This document shows, piece after piece, positions 9,579 to 26,276 of a stretch of DNA of 36,488 nt (within the stretch, counting starts at the first letter, position 1; each line of letters starts with the position of its first letter). A program made the position numbers and the translations under genes. The notes beneath the pieces were generated by a model, which was given only the letters and a program-made list of their open reading frames with translations, was not told the origin of the DNA and made no database searches. This stretch comes from a virus. Lineage: Duplodnaviria; Caudoviricetes. Location: positions 1 through 36,488 of IMG/VR virus record IMGVR_UViG_3300044825_001479. One strand, written 5' to 3'.

Positions 9579-9902
9579 TTACTCTACCTCGACCCTAGGG
9601 CACACGGTGCATTGGGGGTCGCCGCACCGGTACCACCAGGGCCACACTGCATCGGGCATCTTGCCTATCATACAGGCGTATTTGTCGGCCGAGTCCTCGG
9701 GGATCCCATCCCTTTGGTACCGGCGCACTGTACGTACGTCGATGCCGAGTCGCTCTGCGATCGCACCGTGTCCGATCGGGTGCCCGTCTGCCGATTTGAC
9801 CGACGGAGGCCCGACCACGATCCCCATCGCGGCAGCTAGCCTGCTGAGCGGGAATCGCTTAGGTCGGTGGACCTCAAAGTCCGGTACTTCCGAATCCGGC
9901 AT
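9579..9902 (-). CDS. HTH DNA-binding protein (start uncertain)
   Basis: AIAERLGIDVRTVRRY HTH; C-terminal CxxxxCxxC. Confidence 0.65.
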   Translation of the reverse strand: MPDSEVPDFEVHRPKRFPLSRLAAAMGIVVGPPSVKSADGHPIGHGAIAERLGIDVRTVRRYQRDGIPEDSADKYACMIGKMPDAVWPWWYRCGDPQCTVCPRVEVE

Positions 9903-10701
9903 CGCCTCTCTCCGATGTCGACAGATCCCGGTGCTCGACTCGTTCGATACCCATTCCTGCAGCGTACGTCGGGAACGGCACGAGCTGAGCTAGACGCTCG
10001 CCTGGTTCGATGTGCTGCACCTTGCTGCCCACGTTGCGGACGATGACGAACATGTCGCCTCGGTACCCGGCGTCGATGACACTGGGGTTGACCAGGAGCC
10101 CTCGGTTTTTGAACGAGGACGACCTCCCGATCAGCAGCGCCCACATGCCGTATGGCCATTCCAATGCCACACCACACGGCACGTCCACGACTTCCCAGGG
10201 CCGCACCTGCAGCGTCTCGGCCCCGGCGTAGGCGAGATCGAACCCGGCGTCGTCCTGGTGTACGCGCAGGACCTCCCCATGCCCCGCCACCTTTGCCGAA
10301 TACCCCGACACCTCTGCCGCCGGTTCCTGTTCCAGCCAATGTACGGCTGAGGCCACGTCGGGAAACACCGGTACGTCCAGGCCCATGAGCGTGTAGCTCG
10401 TGTGGTCGTGCACCACGGCGACCGGGATCCCGCAGTCCAAGGCTCGCTTGATCTCGATCGGGACTCCGATGCTCGCCGTTCCCCGGGGCAGTAACGCCAA
10501 CACGGCATCGCTACTCTCAAGGGCCACGACGTTCACCAGCTCCGGCCAGTTCGTGTACTCGCCCTGCATATTGAACGCCTGGCTCGGATCGAACACCGAG
10601 AACCCAGCGCACTGGAGCCGCTCCTTGGCCTCGGCTCTCCAGGCGGTGACGTTCGTGTCCGTCCGCCCCTGATCGATCGGGCTTGCCAGGTAGATATTCA
10701 T
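9874..10701 (-). CDS. Fusion of a nucleoside-2-deoxyribosyltransferase/DNPH1-like N-glycosidase domain and a trimeric dUTPase-fold domain
   Basis: N-domain IYLASP, VFDP, SDAVLA, SIGVPIEI..A..CGIPV. C-domain has all five dUTPase motifs: AGFDL, GRSS, VIDAGYRG, GERLAQL, RGDAGFGSTG. Confidence 0.88.
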   Translation of the reverse strand: MNIYLASPIDQGRTDTNVTAWRAEAKERLQCAGFSVFDPSQAFNMQGEYTNWPELVNVVALESSDAVLALLPRGTASIGVPIEIKRALDCGIPVAVVHDHTSYTLMGLDVPVFPDVASAVHWLEQEPAAEVSGYSAKVAGHGEVLRVHQDDAGFDLAYAGAETLQVRPWEVVDVPCGVALEWPYGMWALLIGRSSSFKNRGLLVNPSVIDAGYRGDMFVIVRNVGSKVQHIEPGERLAQLVPFPTYAAGMGIERVEHRDLSTSERGDAGFGSTGL

Positions 10702-11048
10702 GGCCACCTTCCCTCCTGCTTGATGTACTGCGCCATGGTCGAGTACACGCCCAGGTCATGCCACGTGTCCTCGCTTGGCTGGTGTCCCTTGTACAGCGAG
10801 TCCATCACTCGCTGCATCTTACCGTACGCATATAGCGCACAGCCGATCTCCAGCGCCTCGGCATCGTTATACGGCCCGACATCGCCTCGGGCTCGCATAA
10901 ACACCCGGCCCATCGCTGCCAGCGAGTTCGATCCGTACTCCTCCGCCTTGGCTTGGATCGTTGGTGCGGTCGAGTCCACCAAGGCGTGCCACCAGGCGGT
11001 AAATCCCGAGAACGGATCTACGCACGCAGGTTCCAGGTGCTCGCTCAC
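10698..11048 (-). CDS. Small all-helical MazG-like (DUF1599-type) nucleotide-modification protein
   Basis: KAEEYG...GKMQRV...EDTWHDLGVYSTM pattern; translationally coupled to purZ. Confidence 0.6.
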   Translation of the reverse strand: MSEHLEPACVDPFSGFTAWWHALVDSTAPTIQAKAEEYGSNSLAAMGRVFMRARGDVGPYNDAEALEIGCALYAYGKMQRVMDSLYKGHQPSEDTWHDLGVYSTMAQYIKQEGRWP

Positions 11049-12115
11049 TTGAGCCTCCAGGCGATGGAGTTGGCGCCGGTCGTGTAGCCGTCGACCGTGA
11101 CCCCGCAGTCCGCCTCGACTGCCTGCAGGAACTTCGCCGCCCGCTCGGTCAGCTTACCCTCCCCGTCGGCCATCGTCGGGTCGATGTAATCGAGGAACGT
11201 GACCACCAGGTGGGTATGGGCCGACGGTGCCCCGTTGGCGATCATGGCCTTCTTGACGAGCACCGAGTCCCACTGTCCGATTCGCCTGGGTTTCTGCGTC
11301 ACGGTCGTGAGTTCCGGTCCCTGGATGTATCCGTCCGTGTACTCCTGCATGTGGTTCCAATCGACCTCGCCCCGCAGCGGGCCGGAGTTGCCCGCCACTC
11401 TGATCGGGAAAGTCCGGGCCACTACCCACACGTCCAGGCCCAGGTCACGCCGCCACGGCGAGATCCCGGCCATGGCCAGGAAGTCGATAGCTCTGCAGTC
11501 GCTGGAGGTGCAGTACGGATAGAACCCGGCGTGCAACCCGAGCCCGTATCCCTGGGTGCCTTCCACGATGACGCACTCGTTGAGCGCCAGCCGCTCGTTC
11601 AATAGCGTCGCTGTGTCGTTGCCGCCGTCGAAGTCCCAGATCGCTGCCGACCGATCCAGCCTCGCCATCCTGGCCTGGCCGATGCCCTTGGCGGTCGAGC
11701 CGAATCGGTGGTTGTAGTCGCTTCCGGCTTCGGCCTGCTTGTGGCTCTCCTCCAGGACGGTGGCCTGACCGTCGATCACCAGGCGCTCACTGACCTCGTA
11801 GCCCGCCTGGTCAAGCAGGTCGACCTCGTATTCAAGGACGGACTCGTCGATTTCGGACCCGGCGCCCAGCACGAGCTGAATCGAGTTGTCCACGACAGCG
11901 GCGACCGGGATTTGGCGAAGTGCGTACTTCACGCCGTCGATATGGCCGACCGCCGAGTGGCCTGCGTTAGGACCGGCCACTCGCACTGCGGTGACCGGGT
12001 ACCCGCTGTTGATCCGCCTGGCAGCGATCTGAGCGGTCACGTGACCCTTGGCTTCGCTCCCGAACTGACCACCGACCACGACGTCCAGCTGGCCGATCGT
12101 TGTATTCTCGCTCAT
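11045..12115 (-). CDS. purZ: PurZ (2-amino-deoxyadenylosuccinate synthase), PurZ0-like
   Basis: Short PurA homolog. GGQFGSEAKG has Ser in place of the catalytic Asp of GDEGKG. Also GPNAGH, GSTAKGIG, EGTQG, RTFPIRVAGNSGPL, TTVTQKPRRIG and C-terminal TFLD. Confidence 0.93.
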   Translation of the reverse strand: MSENTTIGQLDVVVGGQFGSEAKGHVTAQIAARRINSGYPVTAVRVAGPNAGHSAVGHIDGVKYALRQIPVAAVVDNSIQLVLGAGSEIDESVLEYEVDLLDQAGYEVSERLVIDGQATVLEESHKQAEAGSDYNHRFGSTAKGIGQARMARLDRSAAIWDFDGGNDTATLLNERLALNECVIVEGTQGYGLGLHAGFYPYCTSSDCRAIDFLAMAGISPWRRDLGLDVWVVARTFPIRVAGNSGPLRGEVDWNHMQEYTDGYIQGPELTTVTQKPRRIGQWDSVLVKKAMIANGAPSAHTHLVVTFLDYIDPTMADGEGKLTERAAKFLQAVEADCGVTVDGYTTGANSIAWRLK

Positions 12116-12792: not shown

Positions 12793-12952
12793 GATCTAGC
12801 CTCTTCTTTCCGGTCGGGAAGGCAACCACGCCTCTATAGTAGTCCTCAAATGTCTGGCTCAGGATCGAGCCGATGCAGTCGGCCTGCGTCTCGTCGTCGT
12901 CGCTGACCGCCACTCCACAGTGGGCTGCTCCTGGGTCGACGGCGACGATCAC
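12785..12952 (-). pseudogene. Chimeric remnant ORF: resolvase N-terminus fused to duplicated polymerase C-terminus
   Basis: VIVAVDPGAAHCGVAVS resembles the resolvase start YIVAIDPGEVHCGVAVS. ETQADCIGSILSQTFEDYYRGVVAFPTGKKRLD is identical to the polymerase end. Confidence 0.8.
12798..12894. repeat. 97-bp perfect direct repeat, copy 1
   Basis: Identical to 13689-13785 (agcctcttctttccggtcggg...ggcctgcgtctcgt). Confidence 0.95.
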
Positions 12953-13677
12953 CCGTACCCACCTTCGTGCTCCGCTGGAACCCACAACGAATCGTGTTGC
13001 AGCCCTTGCTCTTCTCGTCGAGTCACCCCGCTGTTCGGTGAGAGCGTGAGACGCTGGACCGAAGTCGTGATCGGCACCCAGTGAGGCGGAGCCGAGAACT
13101 CCGACACAAAGACGTGAGCTCCCCGTCCGACCCACTCGTCCATTACCAACCAGAAGGCCGGGTGGTCAAAGCCTTTGGAGTCCCGGAACCCGACTCCAAC
13201 GTCGGCGTAAGGCGGGTCCGCGTAGACAACGGTACCGGCCTGCGGTTGCCACCACTCATACGACCGGTGTGAGAAACGGAGGTCCAGGCCGAGAAGACGA
13301 GCACGAGTCTTAGCTAGGCTGCGAGCAGATGTCGCCACCAGCCTCTCTGTGTAACCGCCGAACCACTTTCCTCCGAAGCTTGCTCCGAACCCGGCGAAAG
13401 CTCGCAGTGCGCTCGGCTCGGCGGTCTTCAGGTAAACGTACTCCTCCCGACTCAGCGACACGGGAGGCTCCCAGCCTCGCATAAGGGCCTGGTAGAGCAG
13501 GACTAGATCTTCGTTCACGTCGGAGGCCCGAGTCAACCCGAAGTGCGGAGCCATCACTTCCAGCATCGACCCGCCGCCGACAAAAGGTTCAAGATAACGC
13601 GCCCTCTCGGTTGTCGCCGCCAGGATGGCGGGCTTGAAGTGCTTCCGCTGTCGGAACTTTCCACCTACGTACTGCAT
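12949..13677 (-). CDS. DNA N6-adenine methyltransferase (D12/Dam-like class)
   Basis: MQYVGGK, YLEPFVGGGS (SAM binding), SDVNEDL, VVYADPPY (catalytic), FVSE. Confidence 0.9.
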   Translation of the reverse strand: MQYVGGKFRQRKHFKPAILAATTERARYLEPFVGGGSMLEVMAPHFGLTRASDVNEDLVLLYQALMRGWEPPVSLSREEYVYLKTAEPSALRAFAGFGASFGGKWFGGYTERLVATSARSLAKTRARLLGLDLRFSHRSYEWWQPQAGTVVYADPPYADVGVGFRDSKGFDHPAFWLVMDEWVGRGAHVFVSEFSAPPHWVPITTSVQRLTLSPNSGVTRREEQGLQHDSLWVPAEHEGGYG

Positions 13678-13678
13678 T

Positions 13679-15553
13679 TCACTTGTCCAGCCTCTTCTTT
13701 CCGGTCGGGAAGGCAACCACGCCTCTATAGTAGTCCTCAAATGTCTGGCTCAGGATCGAGCCGATGCAGTCGGCCTGCGTCTCGTTATCCACCTCGACCC
13801 ATACTGAGTCGTGGATCTGTAATACCATGACCCCGGGCCACCCAGCCTCGATCTTGATCATGGCGTCCTTCATCAGTTCAGCGACGCTGCCCTGTACTAC
13901 CTGATTCCACGCTTTGCGTGTCTCCTCCCCTGGTGCGAACCATCGCTGTCGATTGCCGGCAAGTCGAACCCAGCTGCGCCGCCGGGCCAGGTTCTCGGAT
14001 CGGTGGCCCATCGCCAACATCTTCGGCATCCGCTGCCCGTATAGCTTCAGCCAGCGATCCACCTGATCGACGGTGACCTGGAGCCCGGTCCACTTGGCGA
14101 TCTCGGCCTGGATGGTGCGGGCACCAGCCCCATACAGAATACCGAACCCGAGTCGCTTCGAGACGGCTCGGTACTTCTCCCATTCCGGGCTGTCCTGTTC
14201 GATTTCGAACACCAGGCGGCACGTGGCGTCGTGGGCGTCATAACCAGCGGCGAACTCGGCCAGCATGCGCTCCTCCTTGGCGATCGCTGCGGCCACTCGA
14301 AACTCGGCCTGGCTGAGGTCCAGCTCCCATAGCTGTTTGTCCTTGGGCGCTGTGAACAGATCCCGTACGGGGCGCACGCCGTCCACGAACTGGTAATCGT
14401 GCGGGATCGCCTGGAGCTGGATGCGCTCAACGCTGAGCCTCCCCGAGATCGTGCCTCGCCCGTCTTCGTTCTTGGTCTGGTGGAACACGCACCGGAGACG
14501 GCCGTCCTCCCCGGCCAACCTGGTCCATCCCTCGTACCACTTCGACAGGGCGGACCCCACCTTGACGTACTCGGCGTAATCGGCTGCTCCTGGTACGTTC
14601 TGCTCCACCAGGATGCGTACGCTTTCTTCGTCGATGCTGGGTTGACCGGTCTTGTCGCTGACCTTCGAGGGCGGGTAACCCAGCTCATCGAAGAAGTATC
14701 GTTTGGCACCCTGGGCGGTCGGTGGTCTGAACGGCAGGTCACGCCCGAGCTGGCCGTGCTTTACTTGGAGCTTGGCAGCCTCGACTCGAGCCTGTTGTAC
14801 GTCGAACCCGATACCCCGCATCTCCATTTTGGTCAAGGTCCGCATAAGCCCGATTTCCCGGTGTACGACCTCCCACGGGATCTGGCCCTCCTCGACCAGC
14901 TCGTACTGCTCCTGCCCTAGGCGCAGCGCCAGCTCAGCGTCCTTGGCTGCATACGGGCCGAGGATCTCCCACGGGGCCAGGTCGTATCGCTTCCGGTCCC
15001 GCTTGCCCGACACGCCGATGCTCTTGTGTGCAGGCTGGTCGACCCAGGCTCGGAGTTTCTGCTCAAGGTCCGCTTCTTCGTCGCCCCACAACCGACCGGC
15101 TGTGGCTTTGAGGGCCACGCTACTAAAGGGCCACAGTAGCGGCGAGATCACCGACGTATCCCAAACCACCTGGTTCGTCAAATCCCGGCCCGGAGCCGCC
15201 ACCTCTCTAGACAGGGACAGGCAAGGCCGGAGTCCTCGCTTCAGGAACATCAGGTCGAATTTGATATTGTGGCCGAGGAGACTGCACTCGCTCAGCCGGT
15301 CCAGTAGCTGGTTCCAGTCGGATGGCCCGAGGTTTATGTCGTCCAGACTGAACAGATCGGGCTGCACTCCCTTGGGAAGGTCCATCTTGTCCAGGCACCC
15401 GTGGTCGAACGGCAGTACCGAGGTCCGTAGCTCGCCGTCCTCGTGCCAGGCCAGCGAAACCACGCTGAGCCATTCTCGGTTGTCCGGGTGAAGGCCGCTC
15501 GTCTCGGTGTCGACGGCCACGATCGTGCCAGGCGCTGGTAGGTCAGCCAACAT
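13679..15553 (-). CDS. Family A DNA polymerase with 3'-5' exonuclease (candidate DpoZ)
   Basis: Exo motifs DTETSG, HNIKFD, YAAKD. Pol motifs A (DLSQAEFR), B (RAVSKRLGFGILYG), C (QIHDS). No 5'-3' exonuclease domain. Confidence 0.92.
   Translation of the reverse strand: MLADLPAPGTIVAVDTETSGLHPDNREWLSVVSLAWHEDGELRTSVLPFDHGCLDKMDLPKGVQPDLFSLDDINLGPSDWNQLLDRLSECSLLGHNIKFDLMFLKRGLRPCLSLSREVAAPGRDLTNQVVWDTSVISPLLWPFSSVALKATAGRLWGDEEADLEQKLRAWVDQPAHKSIGVSGKRDRKRYDLAPWEILGPYAAKDAELALRLGQEQYELVEEGQIPWEVVHREIGLMRTLTKMEMRGIGFDVQQARVEAAKLQVKHGQLGRDLPFRPPTAQGAKRYFFDELGYPPSKVSDKTGQPSIDEESVRILVEQNVPGAADYAEYVKVGSALSKWYEGWTRLAGEDGRLRCVFHQTKNEDGRGTISGRLSVERIQLQAIPHDYQFVDGVRPVRDLFTAPKDKQLWELDLSQAEFRVAAAIAKEERMLAEFAAGYDAHDATCRLVFEIEQDSPEWEKYRAVSKRLGFGILYGAGARTIQAEIAKWTGLQVTVDQVDRWLKLYGQRMPKMLAMGHRSENLARRRSWVRLAGNRQRWFAPGEETRKAWNQVVQGSVAELMKDAMIKIEAGWPGVMVLQIHDSVWVEVDNETQADCIGSILSQTFEDYYRGVVAFPTGKKRLDK
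13689..13785. repeat. 97-bp perfect direct repeat, copy 2 (3' end of polymerase gene)
   Basis: Identical to 12798-12894. Confidence 0.95.
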
Positions 15554-15626
15554 AGCTACTCCCCGGGGTACGGGCTCCGAAGAAAGATACCCACACAATG
15601 GACAACAACGACCCGAAAACTCGCCT

Positions 15627-18842: not shown

Positions 18843-19850
18843 TCAGTCCTCCTGGGACACGACGTCGGCCTCATCGTCCGTCGTCTGGTTGGTTGGTGTG
18901 CTTGCTGCCTGAGCCAGGGCGGCTCGGGCTTCGATCTGGACGGTATCATTGTCCAGGTCGATCTTGTCCTCGACGTAGCCGACTATGCGGTCGAACGTCG
19001 GGGTGACCATGTTGGCCGGCAGAGCGCCGTAGCGATCCTTGGCCTTGAACCTCCCAGTCGGAACGGTGACGCCCGTGTACAGCGTCGTCTCTCCCGCCTG
19101 GATGGCCCGCATGTTGATAACGATGTCAGAGAAGGCGAAGAGATCGCCCTGCAGAGCCGGGGTTACGTTCGGCCCGATCTCCACCATGCCGTCCTCGTCC
19201 TTGCCCTTGCGGACATGGGCGGTGATGGCCAGGTGAATGGGGAGATCCCGCATCATGCGGTACAGTTCCCGGACCTGGTTGGTCATATCGCCGTAGTCGT
19301 CCTGATAGGTCTTCCACGCTTCCCTGACCTGGCCGCTGCGCTCTGCCTTGCGGACCGCCGTCTTGACCAGGGCGTCGATGAAGATCGGCAGGGTGGCGGT
19401 CATGCTGTCCCACACGATGCCGACGATCTCCTCGCCCTTGGCAATCCGATCCTTCACGTCCCAAAGAAGCTGCAGCATCATCGAGTACTCGATGTCTCGC
19501 CACGGCTCGATGTTCTCGATCGGGATGCCCTGGCGCCGCAGGGCACCGGGCTTCATTCCGGCTTCGGAGTCGATGGCGATGACCTTGCCGAGTCTGGCCA
19601 TAGCCAGGGCGCTCGTCGTCTTGGTCTTGCCCGGGTCCCCGTAGTACAGGACCCGAACGGCCTCCTTTTCGTCTGCCAGTGTGAGCCTCGCCTGGGTGGG
19701 CTTGGGCTCCGGTGGAGGACCGTCGCTGGCGCCGGGATTGGCGTCCGCACTCGGGTCTGGTTCGGACGGGTCAGGCACGTCAGGCGTACCCGTTGTCGTA
19801 GCGGGCCGGGTCGCTGCCCGCTTTGCCGCTGTTGCTTTCCTCGGTGGCAC
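18843..19850 (-). CDS. AAA ATPase, Sak4-like recombinase
   Basis: LYYGDPGKTKT, IDSEAG, VWDS, ITAH, AKDRYG; lies in the exonuclease/SSB module. Start GTG at 19850 is inferred. Confidence 0.82.
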   Translation of the reverse strand: MPPRKATAAKRAATRPATTTGTPDVPDPSEPDPSADANPGASDGPPPEPKPTQARLTLADEKEAVRVLYYGDPGKTKTTSALAMARLGKVIAIDSEAGMKPGALRRQGIPIENIEPWRDIEYSMMLQLLWDVKDRIAKGEEIVGIVWDSMTATLPIFIDALVKTAVRKAERSGQVREAWKTYQDDYGDMTNQVRELYRMMRDLPIHLAITAHVRKGKDEDGMVEIGPNVTPALQGDLFAFSDIVINMRAIQAGETTLYTGVTVPTGRFKAKDRYGALPANMVTPTFDRIVGYVEDKIDLDNDTVQIEARAALAQAASTPTNQTTDDEADVVSQED

Positions 19851-20628
19851 GATTGGCCTCCTCAGTGAGTGCACCTCGTACGGCAACGGACGCTGCGAAC
19901 GTGATACCCGGTAGGGCAACACGACGGACGACGCTGGTGCTCACGTCGCCCTCGTTCCATTGCTGGCCGCAGTAGCCAGAGATCATCTGAATGAAACCAG
20001 ACGCCAGCAGGTGGCAAGCCCGGTCGGCCGTAGCCAGGCGGAACATCTGGGTGGCGTAGGCCAGGTCGATCGACCGTTGGTAGACCTGGGCGGGTGCCAT
20101 CAGGAACGACTCGAACCCAAACTCTCGGGCGATGCGTTCCTGCATCACTGCCAGTTTCTGTTCGTCCCCGTCCATCAGGTCGAGCTGATCCTGGGCCGTG
20201 CCCATCGGGCCGACGATGCCCCGAAATGGAATCCAGTGCTGCCAGCCAAGGAGTGCAGCGTCTCCGGTCAACATGCCCATGTACTGGGCCGACATCGCCA
20301 TCTGGATCAGACTCATATTGTCTACGACGTCGGCGCTCGTCATCCCCAGGTGCAGAACCTCAGGTACGGCCGCTACGTGGAGGTACTCCTCCAGGCTGGC
20401 CTTGACATCGTGGCGGGTCTTGCGCTCCCGTCGCCGGATCGACTCCAGGTCGACGTCATTTTGCGCTCGGACCAGGGCGTCCCTGATCTCGTCGCTGTAC
20501 TCGGTGATTCCACACGACGCCTGGGCAAGCCAAACTGCCTGCCAGATCTCCCGATGGATGATCACTCGCTGCTGATCCGACCATAGCTCGAGGATGGCGG
20601 GGTCAACGTACCTCGTCAGTTCTTGCAC
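19780..20628 (-). CDS. purB: Miniature adenylosuccinate lyase (PurB)-like protein lacking both catalytic loops and the C-terminal domain
   Basis: Has TRY..ELWS, RERKTRHDVKA, HLGMTSADVVDN, RGIVGPMGTAQDQLDL, QVYQRSID, QWNEGDVSTSVVRRVALP. No GRxH or SSxMPxKxN motif; 282 aa. Confidence 0.85.
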   Translation of the reverse strand: MQELTRYVDPAILELWSDQQRVIIHREIWQAVWLAQASCGITEYSDEIRDALVRAQNDVDLESIRRRERKTRHDVKASLEEYLHVAAVPEVLHLGMTSADVVDNMSLIQMAMSAQYMGMLTGDAALLGWQHWIPFRGIVGPMGTAQDQLDLMDGDEQKLAVMQERIAREFGFESFLMAPAQVYQRSIDLAYATQMFRLATADRACHLLASGFIQMISGYCGQQWNEGDVSTSVVRRVALPGITFAASVAVRGALTEEANRATEESNSGKAGSDPARYDNGYA

Positions 20629-20669
20629 TTCGGCTTTCTCCCAGGTCGTGGCCCCGTGGGGCCGGTAGT

Positions 20670-20681
20670 AGTGTACCAGGC
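20670..20681 (-). promoter_or_regulatory. Extended -10 promoter (GCCTGG-TACACT) upstream of the purB-like/replication operon
   Basis: Same GCCTGG-TAnnnT context as the promoters at 22792 and 26247. Confidence 0.55.
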
Positions 20682-20970: not shown

Positions 20971-21159
20971 CTACCTGGGTTCCGCACGTCGGACAGTGGG
21001 AACGATGACCCACACGACGACCGCCCCGACCACCTGGTCAGCGCACGACATCAAGCAGTTGATCGGACCGAGGACCAGATCGTCGTCCTGTTCTTCGGAG
21101 CCAATGACGCACAGCCACATTCGGTCGTCGTCATCTAGGATCACGGTGCCCTTTTCCAT
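20971..21159 (-). CDS. Hypothetical protein
   Basis: ATG at 21159 overlaps the nuclease stop (TAATG). Confidence 0.5.
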   Translation of the reverse strand: MEKGTVILDDDDRMWLCVIGSEEQDDDLVLGPINCLMSCADQVVGAVVVWVIVPTVRRAEPR

Positions 21160-22091
21160 TAGTGCCTCGTCAGGTCGACTCGGAATCCGTAGTCTTCCAT
21201 GAGTCGCCGCTCGTCCTGGCCCTTGCGACCAGCCAGGCACGTCTCGGTGTAGTCGCATCTCCACTTGCACGTGTCGGAGTTGGGGTGCCTCTCGGTCTGG
21301 CCCTTGTAGTACAGCGTGTGCATCGTCTCGAACGCCTCGTTAGCGACCGTGATCAGCTCCATGTCGGTGCGGTTCATCAGCGTCCGCTTGAAGCGGTCGG
21401 CCGGGGTCGAGCCCGCTGGCTGCTGTTTGCTGACCGATCCGTCCTTGTTGAGGCTCCTGCCCTGGTCGTCCACCGGTCGACTATCGGGCGCTGGCATCTT
21501 GGTGCGCACGGCGTTGTGGAGCGAACCGAAGATCGGTCGCCCGAGCTGGCGCATCGCCCACGAGTACAGGCCGAACTGATCATCCAAGGCGAGTTCCTTG
21601 TCGGTTGGCAATCGGGCGCATGTCTTGTGGTCGACTACCCACAGGCGCCCGTTCCATAGGACAATCAGGTCGATCTTGCCCTTGATGTGGATGCGGGACC
21701 GGCGCCCGTTTCCGTCCGCTGCCGGGTAGCGCAGCGGCACCTGGAACGGAAGCTCAATAGCAACGATCTTCCATCCGTTACGGGAGTCGTCGCCGTAGTG
21801 ATCGGCGTATCCCTCGAACATCCACCACAGGAGATCGTCCTCGGAGCCTCGGAAGCTCGGATCTCGGTGCTGGTTACAGAATTCGTAGATCTCCTGACGG
21901 CGGACGTCCTCGGGCTTGGTCCGGTCGTACCAGACCTCCATCATGGTGTGCCAGCTCGTGCCCCGGTTCAGCGCCGGGGAGCTGCTGTCTTTGCGCCAGC
22001 GCTCCTGGTAGCTCAGGACGTGCTTGTGCGGGCACTGCCTGGCCGTGTCGATTTCGGACCACGACACGATGTGCTCGGGTGCGGCGTTCAT
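21159..22091 (-). CDS. PD-(D/E)XK (RecB/Cas4-like) exonuclease
   Basis: SWS...CP, GTSWH, IELPF, GKIDLI, VVDHKT, QFGLY, C-terminal CKWRCDYTETC. Confidence 0.88.
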   Translation of the reverse strand: MNAAPEHIVSWSEIDTARQCPHKHVLSYQERWRKDSSSPALNRGTSWHTMMEVWYDRTKPEDVRRQEIYEFCNQHRDPSFRGSEDDLLWWMFEGYADHYGDDSRNGWKIVAIELPFQVPLRYPAADGNGRRSRIHIKGKIDLIVLWNGRLWVVDHKTCARLPTDKELALDDQFGLYSWAMRQLGRPIFGSLHNAVRTKMPAPDSRPVDDQGRSLNKDGSVSKQQPAGSTPADRFKRTLMNRTDMELITVANEAFETMHTLYYKGQTERHPNSDTCKWRCDYTETCLAGRKGQDERRLMEDYGFRVDLTRH

Positions 22092-22417
22092 GCCTTCCTC
22101 CATCCGTCGGCGCCCCAGGTCATCCGCTTGCGGCCCTTGGACTTGATCATGGTCGGGTGACTGGAGACGATGCGGTAGCACTCGCTCCACATCGTGTGCG
22201 GGTTGTTCCGCTGGTAGATGATGACTCGGGACTGGGCCAGGTCGTGCCAGTTGCGGATCAGTTCAGCCGCAGCGGCTAGCGCCTCGTCTATGTCGGCTGC
22301 GTAGCCAACCAGGGCATCCGGCGCCCGGTTCTCCGGGTCGGCCGTATCCTCGATCCTGATCATGTGAGTAGATCCGGCCGAAGGAGGAGCGTCCTCCATG
22401 AAATATCGGTGTGTCAT
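22088..22417 (-). CDS. Hypothetical protein
   Basis: ATG at 22417 after GGGAGG; ATGA overlap with the nuclease gene. Confidence 0.6.
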   Translation of the reverse strand: MTHRYFMEDAPPSAGSTHMIRIEDTADPENRAPDALVGYAADIDEALAAAAELIRNWHDLAQSRVIIYQRNNPHTMWSECYRIVSSHPTMIKSKGRKRMTWGADGWRKA

Positions 22418-22749: not shown

Positions 22750-22791
22750 TTTCGACCTCCCAGGTCAGTAATGGTGAGTGGCGGTAGGGCC

Positions 22792-22821
22792 ATAGTACCA
22801 GGCCGTTGCGCCGGGCGCAAA
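22792..22821 (-). promoter_or_regulatory. SigA-like promoter TTGCGC-17-TACTAT overlapped by a palindromic operator
   Basis: Shares the 15-mer CGCAACGGCCTGGTA with the promoter at 26247-26276. Confidence 0.7.
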
Positions 22822-22822
22822 C

Positions 22823-23098
22823 CTAGCAGGGTGAACCCGGCTCGCCTGGCTTGTAGACCGTGGCGTCCCCAGCGACTACGCAGGTCGCTGGGCCAAGCTG
22901 ACCGGTGCAACCGGCGTACTCGGTACCGCCCTCCAGGGCGCCGTCGCACTGCGCCCAGGTCGTGCTCGTGGTGGCGTCCCGGTTATCCCGAGCGTCGCCC
23001 CGGGAGCACCCGGCCAGAATAAGCGGGAACAACCCCAGGGCGATCAGGAACCCGATCGCTGCCAGCTCCAGCAGGATACCGCGGACCGTGCGGTTCAT
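22823..23098 (-). CDS. Putative lipoprotein
   Basis: Basic N-terminus, hydrophobic stretch, lipobox LAGC, four further Cys. Confidence 0.6.
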   Translation of the reverse strand: MNRTVRGILLELAAIGFLIALGLFPLILAGCSRGDARDNRDATTSTTWAQCDGALEGGTEYAGCTGQLGPATCVVAGDATVYKPGEPGSPC

Positions 23099-23967
23099 GA
23101 TGCCACCTCGGCGTCGTGTGCCTCATAGTCGAACGTGCCGTCAACGATGGCCTTGGCGTTGTCCCCCGTGATGATCACCTGGGGATTGTCGTCCTTGCGG
23201 CTCCAGCGACCCAGGTCCCGAATGATCCGACCCGCTTCCTTCATCAGCTCCAGGCGGGCGATGTTCTCCCTGGCCCGAGCTTCGGCGTCCTCGGACTTGG
23301 CTGCTCGGACGACTCGGGGGTCGGCTTTGGGGCGTGCCGCCACCTCCTTAGCCTTGTCCAGGAACTTAAGCCAGCCCCGCTCCTCCAACTGAGCGTAGGC
23401 ATTCATCCCGAGACGATTCTCGTTCACGTCCTCGGACCCCTCGCCCTGAATGGCCAGCTTGACCAGGGCGGACTTGTGCTTGGCGTCGTGGCCGGGTAGG
23501 TAACGACCTCCACCGGTCGTGCCCTTGCAGCCACACTCGCAGTCACGACCCTGGGTCTGGCGGCGCTGCTCTTTCTTGGCCTGCGCCGTCTTGCGCTTCT
23601 TCACGATCTTTTCGATCGTCTTGGCGTCGGGCGTCTCGGCCTCGATCTTCTCCTGCTCGGTGAGGTACCGATCGACGGAAGCCAGAGCGGTAAGGTGGCT
23701 ACGCCGCATCGACCGGCGAACCCGGGTCTCATCTTGGGTCGATCCGTCGGCCAGGTCGGCAGACTGCTGAGCGAACTTACCCGTGGCGTAATAGTGGCTG
23801 GCTTCCTTCAGCGCCCAACCTCGCTGGTTGGCCACCGCAACTCGCAGCTCCGCCCAGGTGTCGTAAGCGTGGACCTCGCAGGTCGTCGCCGTGATGTTCT
23901 CCACTACGAAACCCTCGTTTACCAGGGCCGTGATCTGGTGGCTTGTCCTGCCTGTCAGCTTCATCAT
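23095..23967 (-). CDS. Hypothetical early protein with CxCGC...PGHDA motif
   Basis: Start placed at 23967 behind GACCTGGGAGGTC; contains CECGCKGTTGGGRYLPGHDAKHKSAL. Confidence 0.7.
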   Translation of the reverse strand: MMKLTGRTSHQITALVNEGFVVENITATTCEVHAYDTWAELRVAVANQRGWALKEASHYYATGKFAQQSADLADGSTQDETRVRRSMRRSHLTALASVDRYLTEQEKIEAETPDAKTIEKIVKKRKTAQAKKEQRRQTQGRDCECGCKGTTGGGRYLPGHDAKHKSALVKLAIQGEGSEDVNENRLGMNAYAQLEERGWLKFLDKAKEVAARPKADPRVVRAAKSEDAEARARENIARLELMKEAGRIIRDLGRWSRKDDNPQVIITGDNAKAIVDGTFDYEAHDAEVAS

Positions 23968-24015
23968 TTCGTGACCTCCCAGGTCGCTTGTTTGTTCTTC
24001 CCAGTTAATCATGTC

Positions 24016-24032
24016 GTTGCGTCGGGCGCAAC
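24016..24032. promoter_or_regulatory. Perfect 17-bp palindromic operator GTTGCG-N5-CGCAAC
   Basis: gttgcgtcgggcgcaac; variants at 22805-22821 and 26260-26276. Confidence 0.65.
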
Positions 24033-24089
24033 CCCCGGATTTCAGGCGAAGGCGACCTTCGCCACTCCCAGGATTGTAGCTCGCCGTTC

Positions 24090-24130
24090 TAAACAGCACG
24101 GAGCCCAGGTCCCCGAAGGAACCTGGGCTC
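24090..24130 (-). terminator. Intrinsic terminator-like hairpin
   Basis: GAGCCCAGGT...ACCTGGGCTC stem with a TTCG-containing loop, followed by CGTGCTGTTT on the minus strand, 23 nt after the upstream stop. Confidence 0.7.
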
Positions 24131-24153
24131 TGGCCTGTCGCCTGGGATAGCGA

Positions 24154-24594
24154 TCAGCGCAGCTTGTCGGCCTCGGCCTCGACCGTCTTGGGCTCGCCCT
24201 TGGCGGGCTGGTAGGTGACCCGGAAGCCATCGCCCTTCTTCGTCGCCTTCACGACCGGGCGCCACGAGCGGCCCACCTTGACCTCCGTGTACGGCAGCGT
24301 CGAGGTGGAGCGAACTCGCTTCGGCTTGGCGGTGAGGAATCGCTCTAAGCCGAACGACTTGGCCGCAGCCTCGGCGGTGGAGGTGGATCCATCAGGAAGC
24401 AGGAGCTTGAAGCCCAGGCGGAACGCCGTCTGCAGGGTGCCCTTGGTCCGGGCGTCCATGCCCGGGGAGAAGCGGGACTTCGGGCCGCAGGTGCGGCCGG
24501 AACGCTCGGTGATGACGAGCTTCCGGTCCTCGTCGATGAAAGCGACGGTGAGGTCCTGGGAGTAGGTCGGTGCGGTTTCGGTCTTGGTGGCCAT
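24154..24594 (-). CDS. Hypothetical basic protein (FxPGxDA motif), own transcription unit
   Basis: ATG at 24594 after AGGAG; Lys/Arg-rich; flanked by a TTGACA promoter and a terminator. Confidence 0.7.
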   Translation of the reverse strand: MATKTETAPTYSQDLTVAFIDEDRKLVITERSGRTCGPKSRFSPGMDARTKGTLQTAFRLGFKLLLPDGSTSTAEAAAKSFGLERFLTAKPKRVRSTSTLPYTEVKVGRSWRPVVKATKKGDGFRVTYQPAKGEPKTVEAEADKLR

Positions 24595-24643
24595 TGTGCG
24601 GGTGTGCTCCTGTTCGAGTTCGGGCTCTTTCCTGAACAACACC

Positions 24644-24694
24644 AGTAAACCACGACGGTAGGGTCGCTGTCAACCCCCAACGTCATGTGACGTT
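24644..24694 (-). promoter_or_regulatory. Promoter with consensus -35 TTGACA and an upstream palindrome AACGTCA-N2-TGACGTT
   Basis: TTGACA-18-TTTACT on the minus strand; perfect 7-bp-arm inverted repeat at 24679-24694. Confidence 0.6.
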
Positions 24695-24696
24695 CT

Positions 24697-25989
24697 TCAC
24701 ACTAAATCCAGGGCGCTGATGACGCCAGCCTCCTGCTCGCCCTTGGTGTTGAGCGTGGCCAGCAACTTCTCATCGACGGTACCCCGAGCCACGAGATCGA
24801 TGCGCCTGGTCGCCAGCTCCTGGCCGAACCGGCGGATGCGCCTCTGCGCCTGGTAGTTGAATAGCGCCCGGGGCGATCGCTCCACAAACACGGCCAGGTC
24901 AGCGGCCGTCAAGGTCACGCCTTCCGAGATCGTACTGAACGTGCCGACCAGGACGTCCAGCTCGAATGCCTGGAACCGATCGATGATGTCGGCCTTAGCG
25001 CCTGCAGACAGCGATCCGTCGATTACCGCCACCTGTTTGCCTTTCTGTCTGGCCAGCTCGGCCACGCATGCCGCTGAATCTCGGAAATGCGTGAAGCAGA
25101 CCATAGGCCGATTTTGCTCTTCCATGATGTCGCCTAGAGCGTCCATCTTGGCGCCGTGTGGCCGGTGTGTCTTGTCGACTGCGCCCAGCGAGGTGGCCAT
25201 CTGAGCGAGCTTCACGAACTGATCGCCGCTGGACCAGGAGACGACGAGCCCGTCGCCAATCTCAGCGACCAGGCTGTCTTTCATCTGGTTGTACGCCGTA
25301 CGCTGGGCGCCTCGGAGGTCCACCTCGATGGTCTGTTGTGAGAGTGGCGGCAGCTCGTCTAGCACCAGGTCCGTCTCCCGCCGGAGCCAATGCTCGCCCA
25401 GGTCGCAACCAGCAGCGAAGTCCGCCCAGGTCAGGTGCTCATGCAAACCGAGGATCTCGATGCCGGTGCGATACGGCGGCTTCCAGGTGCGGAACCACTC
25501 ATCGACCCAACGCCAGTACGAGCTGAATCTCCGATCTTTCGGGCCGTGGATGATTCGCAGCAGCGGCCAGATCGTCCAAGCCCAACCCGATAGTGGAGTG
25601 CCTGTCAACATGAACACGTTTGTGGCTGGGAGCTTGATTGCCGCTTGAGTCCAGTTTGCTGTGCGGCCTTTGAGGTAGTGCGCCTCGTCGAATACCACAG
25701 TGTCGTATTCTTTGAACTCGGCCCGAGGAGCAGGGAATGTCTTGCTTCCCTCCCGCCGACTGAGCCTCGAATACGAGATGACCTCGAACTCAACATCAGG
25801 CCGCCACTCCTCGCAAGAACGCCGCCAGTGGTGTTGCAAGGTCGCTGGACACACAATCAGGGTACGGCCGTCCACGGCCATCAGCGCCTGGTTGGTCTTG
25901 CCCAGGCCAGGCTCATCGGCCAGGATCGCTTTGCCAGCACGTCGCAGGAAGGCGCTACCTTCCGCCTGGTAACTCCGCTGCTCAGGCAT
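24697..25989 (-). CDS. SNF2-family helicase
   Basis: RSYQ, ILADEPGLGKT, VFDEAH, LTGTP, SEGVTLT, QAQRRIRRFGQ. Confidence 0.92.
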   Translation of the reverse strand: MPEQRSYQAEGSAFLRRAGKAILADEPGLGKTNQALMAVDGRTLIVCPATLQHHWRRSCEEWRPDVEFEVISYSRLSRREGSKTFPAPRAEFKEYDTVVFDEAHYLKGRTANWTQAAIKLPATNVFMLTGTPLSGWAWTIWPLLRIIHGPKDRRFSSYWRWVDEWFRTWKPPYRTGIEILGLHEHLTWADFAAGCDLGEHWLRRETDLVLDELPPLSQQTIEVDLRGAQRTAYNQMKDSLVAEIGDGLVVSWSSGDQFVKLAQMATSLGAVDKTHRPHGAKMDALGDIMEEQNRPMVCFTHFRDSAACVAELARQKGKQVAVIDGSLSAGAKADIIDRFQAFELDVLVGTFSTISEGVTLTAADLAVFVERSPRALFNYQAQRRIRRFGQELATRRIDLVARGTVDEKLLATLNTKGEQEAGVISALDLV

Positions 25990-26239
25990 CGTCGCCGAAG
26001 CAGTTCGTTCGGAGCCATTCGCCGGAGGCACCGGGGCCGTCGATCATGGCCGACAGCAGGCCCGCCTTGTCGTCCTCGTCTAGCTCGTAGACCTCCACGA
26101 GCTTGGCTACCAGCCGGAGCCCGGGCACCCGGTCGCCTCCCCTGATCCGGCTGACCGTGGTGTAGTCGCACCCGAGAACCTGGGCGATTTCCCGGCTCGA
26201 GGAGCGAGGTGGAGGAGGAGATGCGGCACCTGTCGTCAT
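25982..26239 (-). CDS. XRE-type HTH regulator
   Basis: SREIAQVLGCDYTTVSRIRGGDRVPG; leaderless ATG at 26239. Confidence 0.8.
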   Translation of the reverse strand: MTTGAASPPPPRSSSREIAQVLGCDYTTVSRIRGGDRVPGLRLVAKLVEVYELDEDDKAGLLSAMIDGPGASGEWLRTNCFGDDA

Positions 26240-26276
26240 GGACGGCAGAATACCAGGCCGTTGCGTCGCTAGCAAG
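26240..26276 (-). promoter_or_regulatory. SigA-like leaderless promoter TTGCTA-17-TATTCT
   Basis: -10 lies 7 nt before the ATG; a degenerate operator copy overlaps the -35. Confidence 0.72.

Follow-up and report, generated by a model that had tools for sequence, protein, structure and literature searches.

The half-PurB gene in its phage genome

The window analysed here (36,488 nucleotides) is a whole 36.5-kb phage contig, in which terminase, capsid and a long tail gene were found and the main genes all lie on the minus strand. Its replication block runs in the order Cas4-like exonuclease, a shortened PurB (half-PurB, P0001), Sak4, SSB-like protein, primase, polymerase A, methyltransferase, purZ, a 116-aa ORF and an NDT-dUTPase fusion (Table 1). 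The PurZ passes its family cut-off, carries Ser in place of the PurA Asp and has its closest cultured matches among actinophage PurZ genes. The 116-aa ORF, which has what we take to be a MazG-like look, also directly follows purZ in L001, L010 and G003:C325, giving four of the five purZ genomes. The NDT-Dut pair is typical of PurZ0 phages according to the accessible text of PMC12884076.

Two further features of the window lie outside this pathway. A Dam-like N6-adenine methyltransferase gene (12949-13740, within 12795-13785) is flanked by 100-nt direct repeats, 99% alike, which duplicate the polA end; a 44-nt copy of the start of the next gene is also present. It is probably a recent insertion because the close relative L010 does not have it, and an adenine methyltransferase is an odd possession for a genome that may lack adenine. 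Three spaced, imperfect 30-nt repeats (at 22791, 24002 and 26246; window 22791-26275) are possibly regulatory sites.

Table 1. Features of the half-PurB gene and of the surrounding replication block.
Feature	Position	Strand	Basis
Half-PurB ORF P0001, 282 aa, GTG start	19780..20628	-	intact ORF
Half-PurB conserved core, residues 1-252	19873-20628	-	
RHD motif; H73 and D74 invariant (68/68)	20407..20415	-	
TSAD motif; T97, S98 and D100 invariant	20329..20340	-	
Variable linker in place of the 46-aa hairpin with the catalytic His	20233..20295	-	
Variable linker in place of the 42-aa hairpin with the SSxMPxKxN loop	20008..20052	-	
WNEGDVSxSVVRR motif; W224, E226, G227, D228, S232, R235 and R236 invariant	19921..19959	-	
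GGGAG ribosome-binding site, 9 nt before GTG	20638..20642	-	sequence
Extended -10-like TGGTACACT, promoter unproven	20670..20678	-	sequence
PurZ, GSEAKG motif	11045..12115	-	NF038379 301.6 bits, cut-off 300
NDT-dUTPase fusion, like DmtZ-DutZ of PurZ0 phages	9874..10707	-	Pfam; NDT part below Pfam cut-off
116-aa ORF after purZ	10698..11048	-	no Pfam or PHROG match
Family A polymerase	13679..15598	-	best model DpoZ_2, 264 bits, below 350 cut-off
Sak4-like annealing protein, usual downstream neighbour of half-PurB	18843..19850	-	
Cas4-like PD-(D/E)XK exonuclease, usual upstream neighbour of half-PurB	21159..22190	-	

The preliminary description had read the gene as an intact ORF for a PurB that lacks two internal segments of roughly 40 aa and the C-terminal domain, and all of this was borne out. 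P0001 matches mycobacterial PurB (4NLE, 9OO0) at E of about 1e-39 (best 2.6e-39) in three separate pieces (residues 5-116, 133-198/201 and 204/205-247/251), with the motifs RHD, TSxD, RGxxGxxGT, QVY and WNEGD in the PurB order. We sized the gaps by motif spacing against the Micromonospora PurB P0021. The distance from TS to RG is 41 aa in P0001 versus 87 in P0021, and that from QVY to WNEGD is 43 versus 85 aa, and therefore the deletions amount to 46 and 42 aa; the first removes GRSH, the His loop, and the second SSAMPHKMN, the Ser loop. Domain 3 (ADSL_C) is absent, no Pfam model matches, and TIGR00928 gives 101 bits against a cut-off of 326. By its sequence the half-PurB is not a strict PurB member, because three defining features fail: GRxH, SSxMPxKxN, and domain 3 together with the family cut-off.

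Despite these losses, the alignment-based AF2 model of P0001 is confident (pLDDT 89.4, pTM 0.87), and its best fold match is again 9OO0 (Z 26.1, r.m.s.d. 4.8, 268 aligned residues), so that the mycobacterial-type PurB (4NLE, 9OO0/9OP0; TIGR00928) is the closest known protein in both sequence and fold. The half differs from it in lacking both hairpins, domain 3 and usually RY, and in having TSAD in place of TSRD. The short 3-carboxy-cis,cis-muconate cycloisomerase PcaB (2FEL, 337-residue chain) is another shortened member of the superfamily, an Atlas neighbour with Z 21.9 to the half; unlike in the half, the C-terminal domain is presumably all that is lost and the loops are retained.

A promoter and a ribosome-binding site of its own had also been ascribed to the gene. 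The ribosome-binding site stands, whereas the promoter is unproven because a sigma-70 scan returned 0 promoters and left only the -10-like TGGTACACT. The last ~30 aa of P0001 form a non-conserved extension over the Sak4 start (GAGGAGG, then GTG at 19850), an overlap of 71 nt (19780-19850) that only P0003 has in common with it among the 29 A1 proteins. Contigs of run X3, whose sample may be the source of the window DNA, cross both deletion junctions and show no difference there.

A family of half-PurBs and its active-site residues

Of the best 120 matches in the first search, 28 were short homologues, not counting the query itself, and a motif-spacing test then classed 69 of 263 proteins as short-form. 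The 68 half-PurBs of the main type, 28-60% identical to P0001, were aligned (A6), and their gene usually lies between the exonuclease and Sak4. The same cuts are thus common to at least 68 divergent proteins. Among close pairs, dN/dS is 0.064 for L007/L024 (263 codons) and 0.076 for L009/L030 (168 codons), and distant pairs give about 0.16-0.52 where dS is estimable. The half-PurB is under purifying selection. Decay or an assembly artefact is ruled out by these shared cuts and by the two close-pair ratios, and the earlier view of a coherent truncation was upheld, the confident AF2 model (pLDDT 89) likewise speaking for it.

In cultured phages no half was found, only five weak matches, all in unannotated records, and four single-protein viral scans gave 0, 1, 0 and 0 loci. 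Halves also occur in Streptomyces genome records, among them the loop-less forms P0138, P0205 and P0151/P0288/P0289, with two copies in strain NBC_01017. Scans for context to the Streptomyces records gave no half-like match among 401 genomes of one genus and 301 of one phylum, a second match in one of the 401 (G571) being a contig-end piece. That no earlier description was known agrees with a literature search that found none, mostly outside subscription papers and with the original PurZ/PurZ0 reports, the mycobacterial PurB paper and supplements outside its scope.

P0250 (GATS type) and P0153 (P0155 type) are stand-alone halves of other PurB lineages. The placement of all halves in one clade was rejected (p-AU 6e-5), and therefore the same cut has at least two origins. 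A quick tree of 75 rows and 169 core columns also suggested several origins within the mycobacterial type, which we do not claim because a single clade was not rejected there (p-AU 0.6).

We compared the A6 proteins with 73 hand-picked full-length PurBs of the half's type (A5). In all 68 halves H73, D74, H93, T97, S98, D100, Q181 and R185 are retained, as are W224, E226, G227, D228, S232, R235 and R236, and the R of RHD is found in 52/68. The claim that substrate-binding residues are kept was correct for H73, D74, H93, T97, S98, Q181, S232 and R236, of which we take H73, T97, S98 and Q181 to line the succinyl side. The motifs that had been listed do occur in order, and P0001 itself has RY, but RY is not a family feature, being present in 6/68 halves compared with 73/73 A5 proteins. 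In the linkers of the halves (27-49 aa) neither a His nor a Ser is conserved that could replace the lost ones, every invariant polar residue is inherited from PurB, and L94, A99 and V102 are the only conserved changes specific to the family.

According to PMC6301967, three protomers contribute to each PurB site, where His159 is the acid, Ser289 the base and domain 3 a lid, and PMC13539675 assigns R-Y and the ribose-binding residues to different monomers. The halves thus lose the parts that a subunit donates and keep those that it uses itself, as the preliminary description had proposed for the missing motifs.

One retained motif carries a conspicuous substitution. The residue after TS is Ala in 66/68 halves and Arg in none, compared with Arg in 73/73 A5 PurBs, a set from which nine full-length proteins that also lack the TSRD Arg had been left out. 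Full-length phage PurBs of the half's type that stand beside PurZ and have no Arg were also found, namely in L064 (TSAD), L071 and L107 (both TSCD) and L290 (TSHD), and four related halves, P0126, P0146, P0151 and P0181, keep it as TGRD. In human ADSL, Arg329 lies at the SAICAR carbonyl (PMC6301967, accessible part), which corresponds to the edge next to purine C2, and the half's PurB type has Gly at the position of Arg329. We infer that the TSRD Arg may stand in for human Arg329 and would block a 2-amino group; the four TGRD halves and the nine full-length proteins left out of A5 speak against this.

Links to purZ, host PurB and rearranged enzymes

The need of Z synthesis for a lyase step, normally performed by host PurB, was asserted at the outset and agrees with the accessible part of bioRxiv 2025.10.22.683976, which assigns the step to host PurB; the accessible text of PMC12884076 on PurZ0 phages never mentions a lyase. 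The supposed co-occurrence with purZ was seen in all five genomes that reach its position (the window, L001, L010, L042 and L047); among 19 half-carrying loci, four reach it and 15 do not (L002, 61% complete, and 14 shorter or partial ones). Viral PurZ loci numbered 269, and of the best 80, many of them near-copies, 37 have a full-type PurB (two cut at contig ends), one has a half, 42 have no PurB within the 4-21 kb examined, and none has a half and a full PurB together. A Sak4-anchored control, aimed at relatives that lack purZ, gave 26 mostly distant and uninformative loci, with no PurB of any kind.

Two observations on individual loci may be added. L001:10001-17400 (G004, 93% complete) carries half-PurB, WhiB, purZ and NDT-dUTPase, and nowhere on that contig is there a match to the polymerase A or Sak4 of the window; it is possibly a PurZ phage without a family A polymerase. 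Several loci among L259-L282 have short, divergent PurBs (about 365-450 aa stop to stop) with WGEHD or FGEHD directly after purZ.

Cultured PurZ phages differ by host, in a comparison that covers few clades and includes duplicate records: PurB accompanies PurZ in 11/11 records from Gordonia (6/6) and Streptomyces (5/5), in contrast to 0/123 from Arthrobacter (0/105) and Microbacterium (0/18), four of these negatives being confirmed by profile. Host PurB types were read for four genera. The named Streptomyces, Nocardia and Tsukamurella records have a PurB of the half's type and one Arthrobacter record has an E. coli-type PurB. The pattern, in these few clades, fits the idea that host PurB of the half's type handles succinyl-dZMP badly. 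WhiB-like genes in L001 and L022 would point to actinobacterial hosts for these two. Two half-carrying contigs fell into bins of non-actinobacterial MAGs, labelled Botrimarina and Gemmatimonadales, and the PurB of these MAGs is of the GATS type; if these are the true hosts, a matched heteromer is doubtful, although the bin of a phage contig is a poor guide to its host.

The actinophages with PurZ0 that encode a 'PurB-like adenylosuccinate lyase' (Archimedes gp38, Ghobes, Sapo and Frizzle; Hiyaa, Galactica gp75, Keanu and Spocter) resemble the window in having a phage-encoded protein, probably for the same step, in a PurZ genome. However, Archimedes gp38 and Galactica gp75 keep GRTH and SSxMPHKxN, need no host subunit, and belong to a different PurB branch.

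The architecture of the half recurs in a natural rearrangement. P0228, a 603-aa protein from a 9-member cluster, aligns twice to one PurB with reciprocal gaps. Its residues 2-285 show the half's two internal deletions, with gaps at both hairpins, and residues 309-593 contain these hairpins, His before Ser, followed by domain 3, so that, unlike in the half, the missing pieces are fused behind. The protein looks like the product of a tandem duplication with reciprocal deletions; it arose from a GATS-type PurB, separately from the mycobacterial-type halves. P0306 and P0538, a second lineage, have the same order. In P0228 RY is retained and a 21-aa insert comes after it, which would be expected if RY has to extend to the donated side. 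Its single-sequence fold, with a pLDDT of 34, is too poor to be used. Rearranged PurBs (the P0228 cluster, P0306, P0538 and P0383) lie on contigs up to 273-379 kb.

Proposed function and its alternatives

We propose, with a probability of roughly 0.55, that the half joins host PurB as a specificity subunit, uses the loops of the host enzyme, cleaves succinyl-dZMP and disables some host sites. Co-assembly with full-length host subunits would create hybrid sites in which succinyl-dZMP, as made by PurZ, would be cleaved to the dZMP needed for Z-DNA. Judging from helix order and the known fold, all three cuts presumably shorten the helical bundle at the end remote from domain 1; the His loop, the Ser/Lys/Asn loop, RY and the domain 3 lid would then come from host subunits. 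With Ala instead of the TSRD Arg, the 2-amino group would have space, and those host sites that face the missing loops would be inactive, with the added benefit of less AMP/dATP synthesis. There is precedent for such sharing in B. subtilis PurB, argininosuccinate lyase and viral-host hybrid enzymes, in which inactive subunits complete each other's shared sites; the complementing subunits in B. subtilis PurB and argininosuccinate lyase are full-length point mutants, unlike a viral half-subunit. The literature search turned up no paper on such complementation. Three functional options had been left side by side, a specificity subunit, an inhibitor or sponge, and new chemistry. The first gains support from the P0228 fusion, the change of TSRD to TSAD and the host-type pattern, and the last is disfavoured because no conserved replacement residue was found.

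The half could instead be a dominant-negative inhibitor, or a sponge for AMP, SAMP or AICAR, that starves dATP synthesis with no gain in Z-lyase activity. Both catalytic loops are lost, a loop-less subunit would kill sites because these are shared between subunits, and Z phages encode dATP-removing enzymes (PMC12884076, accessible part). We nevertheless consider this unlikely: Z synthesis itself requires the lyase step (bioRxiv 2025.10.22.683976, accessible part), the lyases of related PurZ phages are full enzymes that have both loops, and T97, S98, Q181 and H73 would not have to stay 68/68 in a poison.

Less probable still is a non-catalytic binder of succinyl-dZMP that acts outside the tetramer and either relieves product inhibition of PurZ or hands the nucleotide over to host PurB. 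In its favour are the intact substrate half-site and the presence of purZ in 5/5 informative genomes, yet this half-site would be an open cleft without the partner's RY and domain 3. The distance of the gene from purZ is also about 5-10 kb or more, no fusion of the two was found, and the natural fusion P0228 joins a half to PurB loops, not to PurZ. An equally low standing is given to a self-sufficient homo-oligomer, working as a slow lyase or catalysing a different reaction through the invariant H73, H93 and E226. The confident lone fold and the several retained polar residues speak for it, but the invariant polar residues are PurB-inherited, only L94, A99 and V102 are conserved changes specific to the family, the linkers are unconserved, and beta-elimination requires the Ser-loop base according to the accessible text of PMC6301967.

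The least probable reading is a split enzyme whose missing half comes from an unrecognised phage or host gene: P0228 shows that the missing pieces, as a stand-alone set, are able to form one folding unit inside a single chain, but the half-carrying genomes (in L010, 20 of 34.8 kb covered) gave no match to the profile of any missing piece, where a very divergent form could escape, and stand-alone sets occurred neither among 120 short database matches nor among 119 viral Ser-loop ORFs. Among 120 longer matches (114 of canonical order, 6 unclassified) there was likewise no stand-alone or mycobacterial-type fused complement. With no phage complement found, host PurB is the only evident donor of the missing parts.

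The specificity-subunit reading can be extended, at somewhat less than even odds, to a general picture in which a viral half-subunit would take the place of the substrate-recognition half in an essential host homotetramer, use the host's catalytic loops in trans, reprogram the lyase into a 2-amino-deoxy-specific enzyme and at once cripple adenine synthesis, the crosswise cut of the fumarase-superfamily bundle would have evolved at least twice, and P0228 would be a half-tetramer enzyme.

Z synthesis may be limited by one widespread type of host PurB, as the half-PurB family suggests, and to this phages would have two solutions, a full enzyme or a ~250-aa half reliant on host subunits. Domain-based surveys of Z phages would miss the second because it has no Pfam match. 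The residue following TS is a testable position for 2-aminoadenine specificity that would be useful for making Z-DNA, and the family suggests that a lyase fold with shared sites can be split crosswise. If the proposed co-assembly is true, the half-PurB would represent a novel means by which viruses adjust the enzymes of their hosts.
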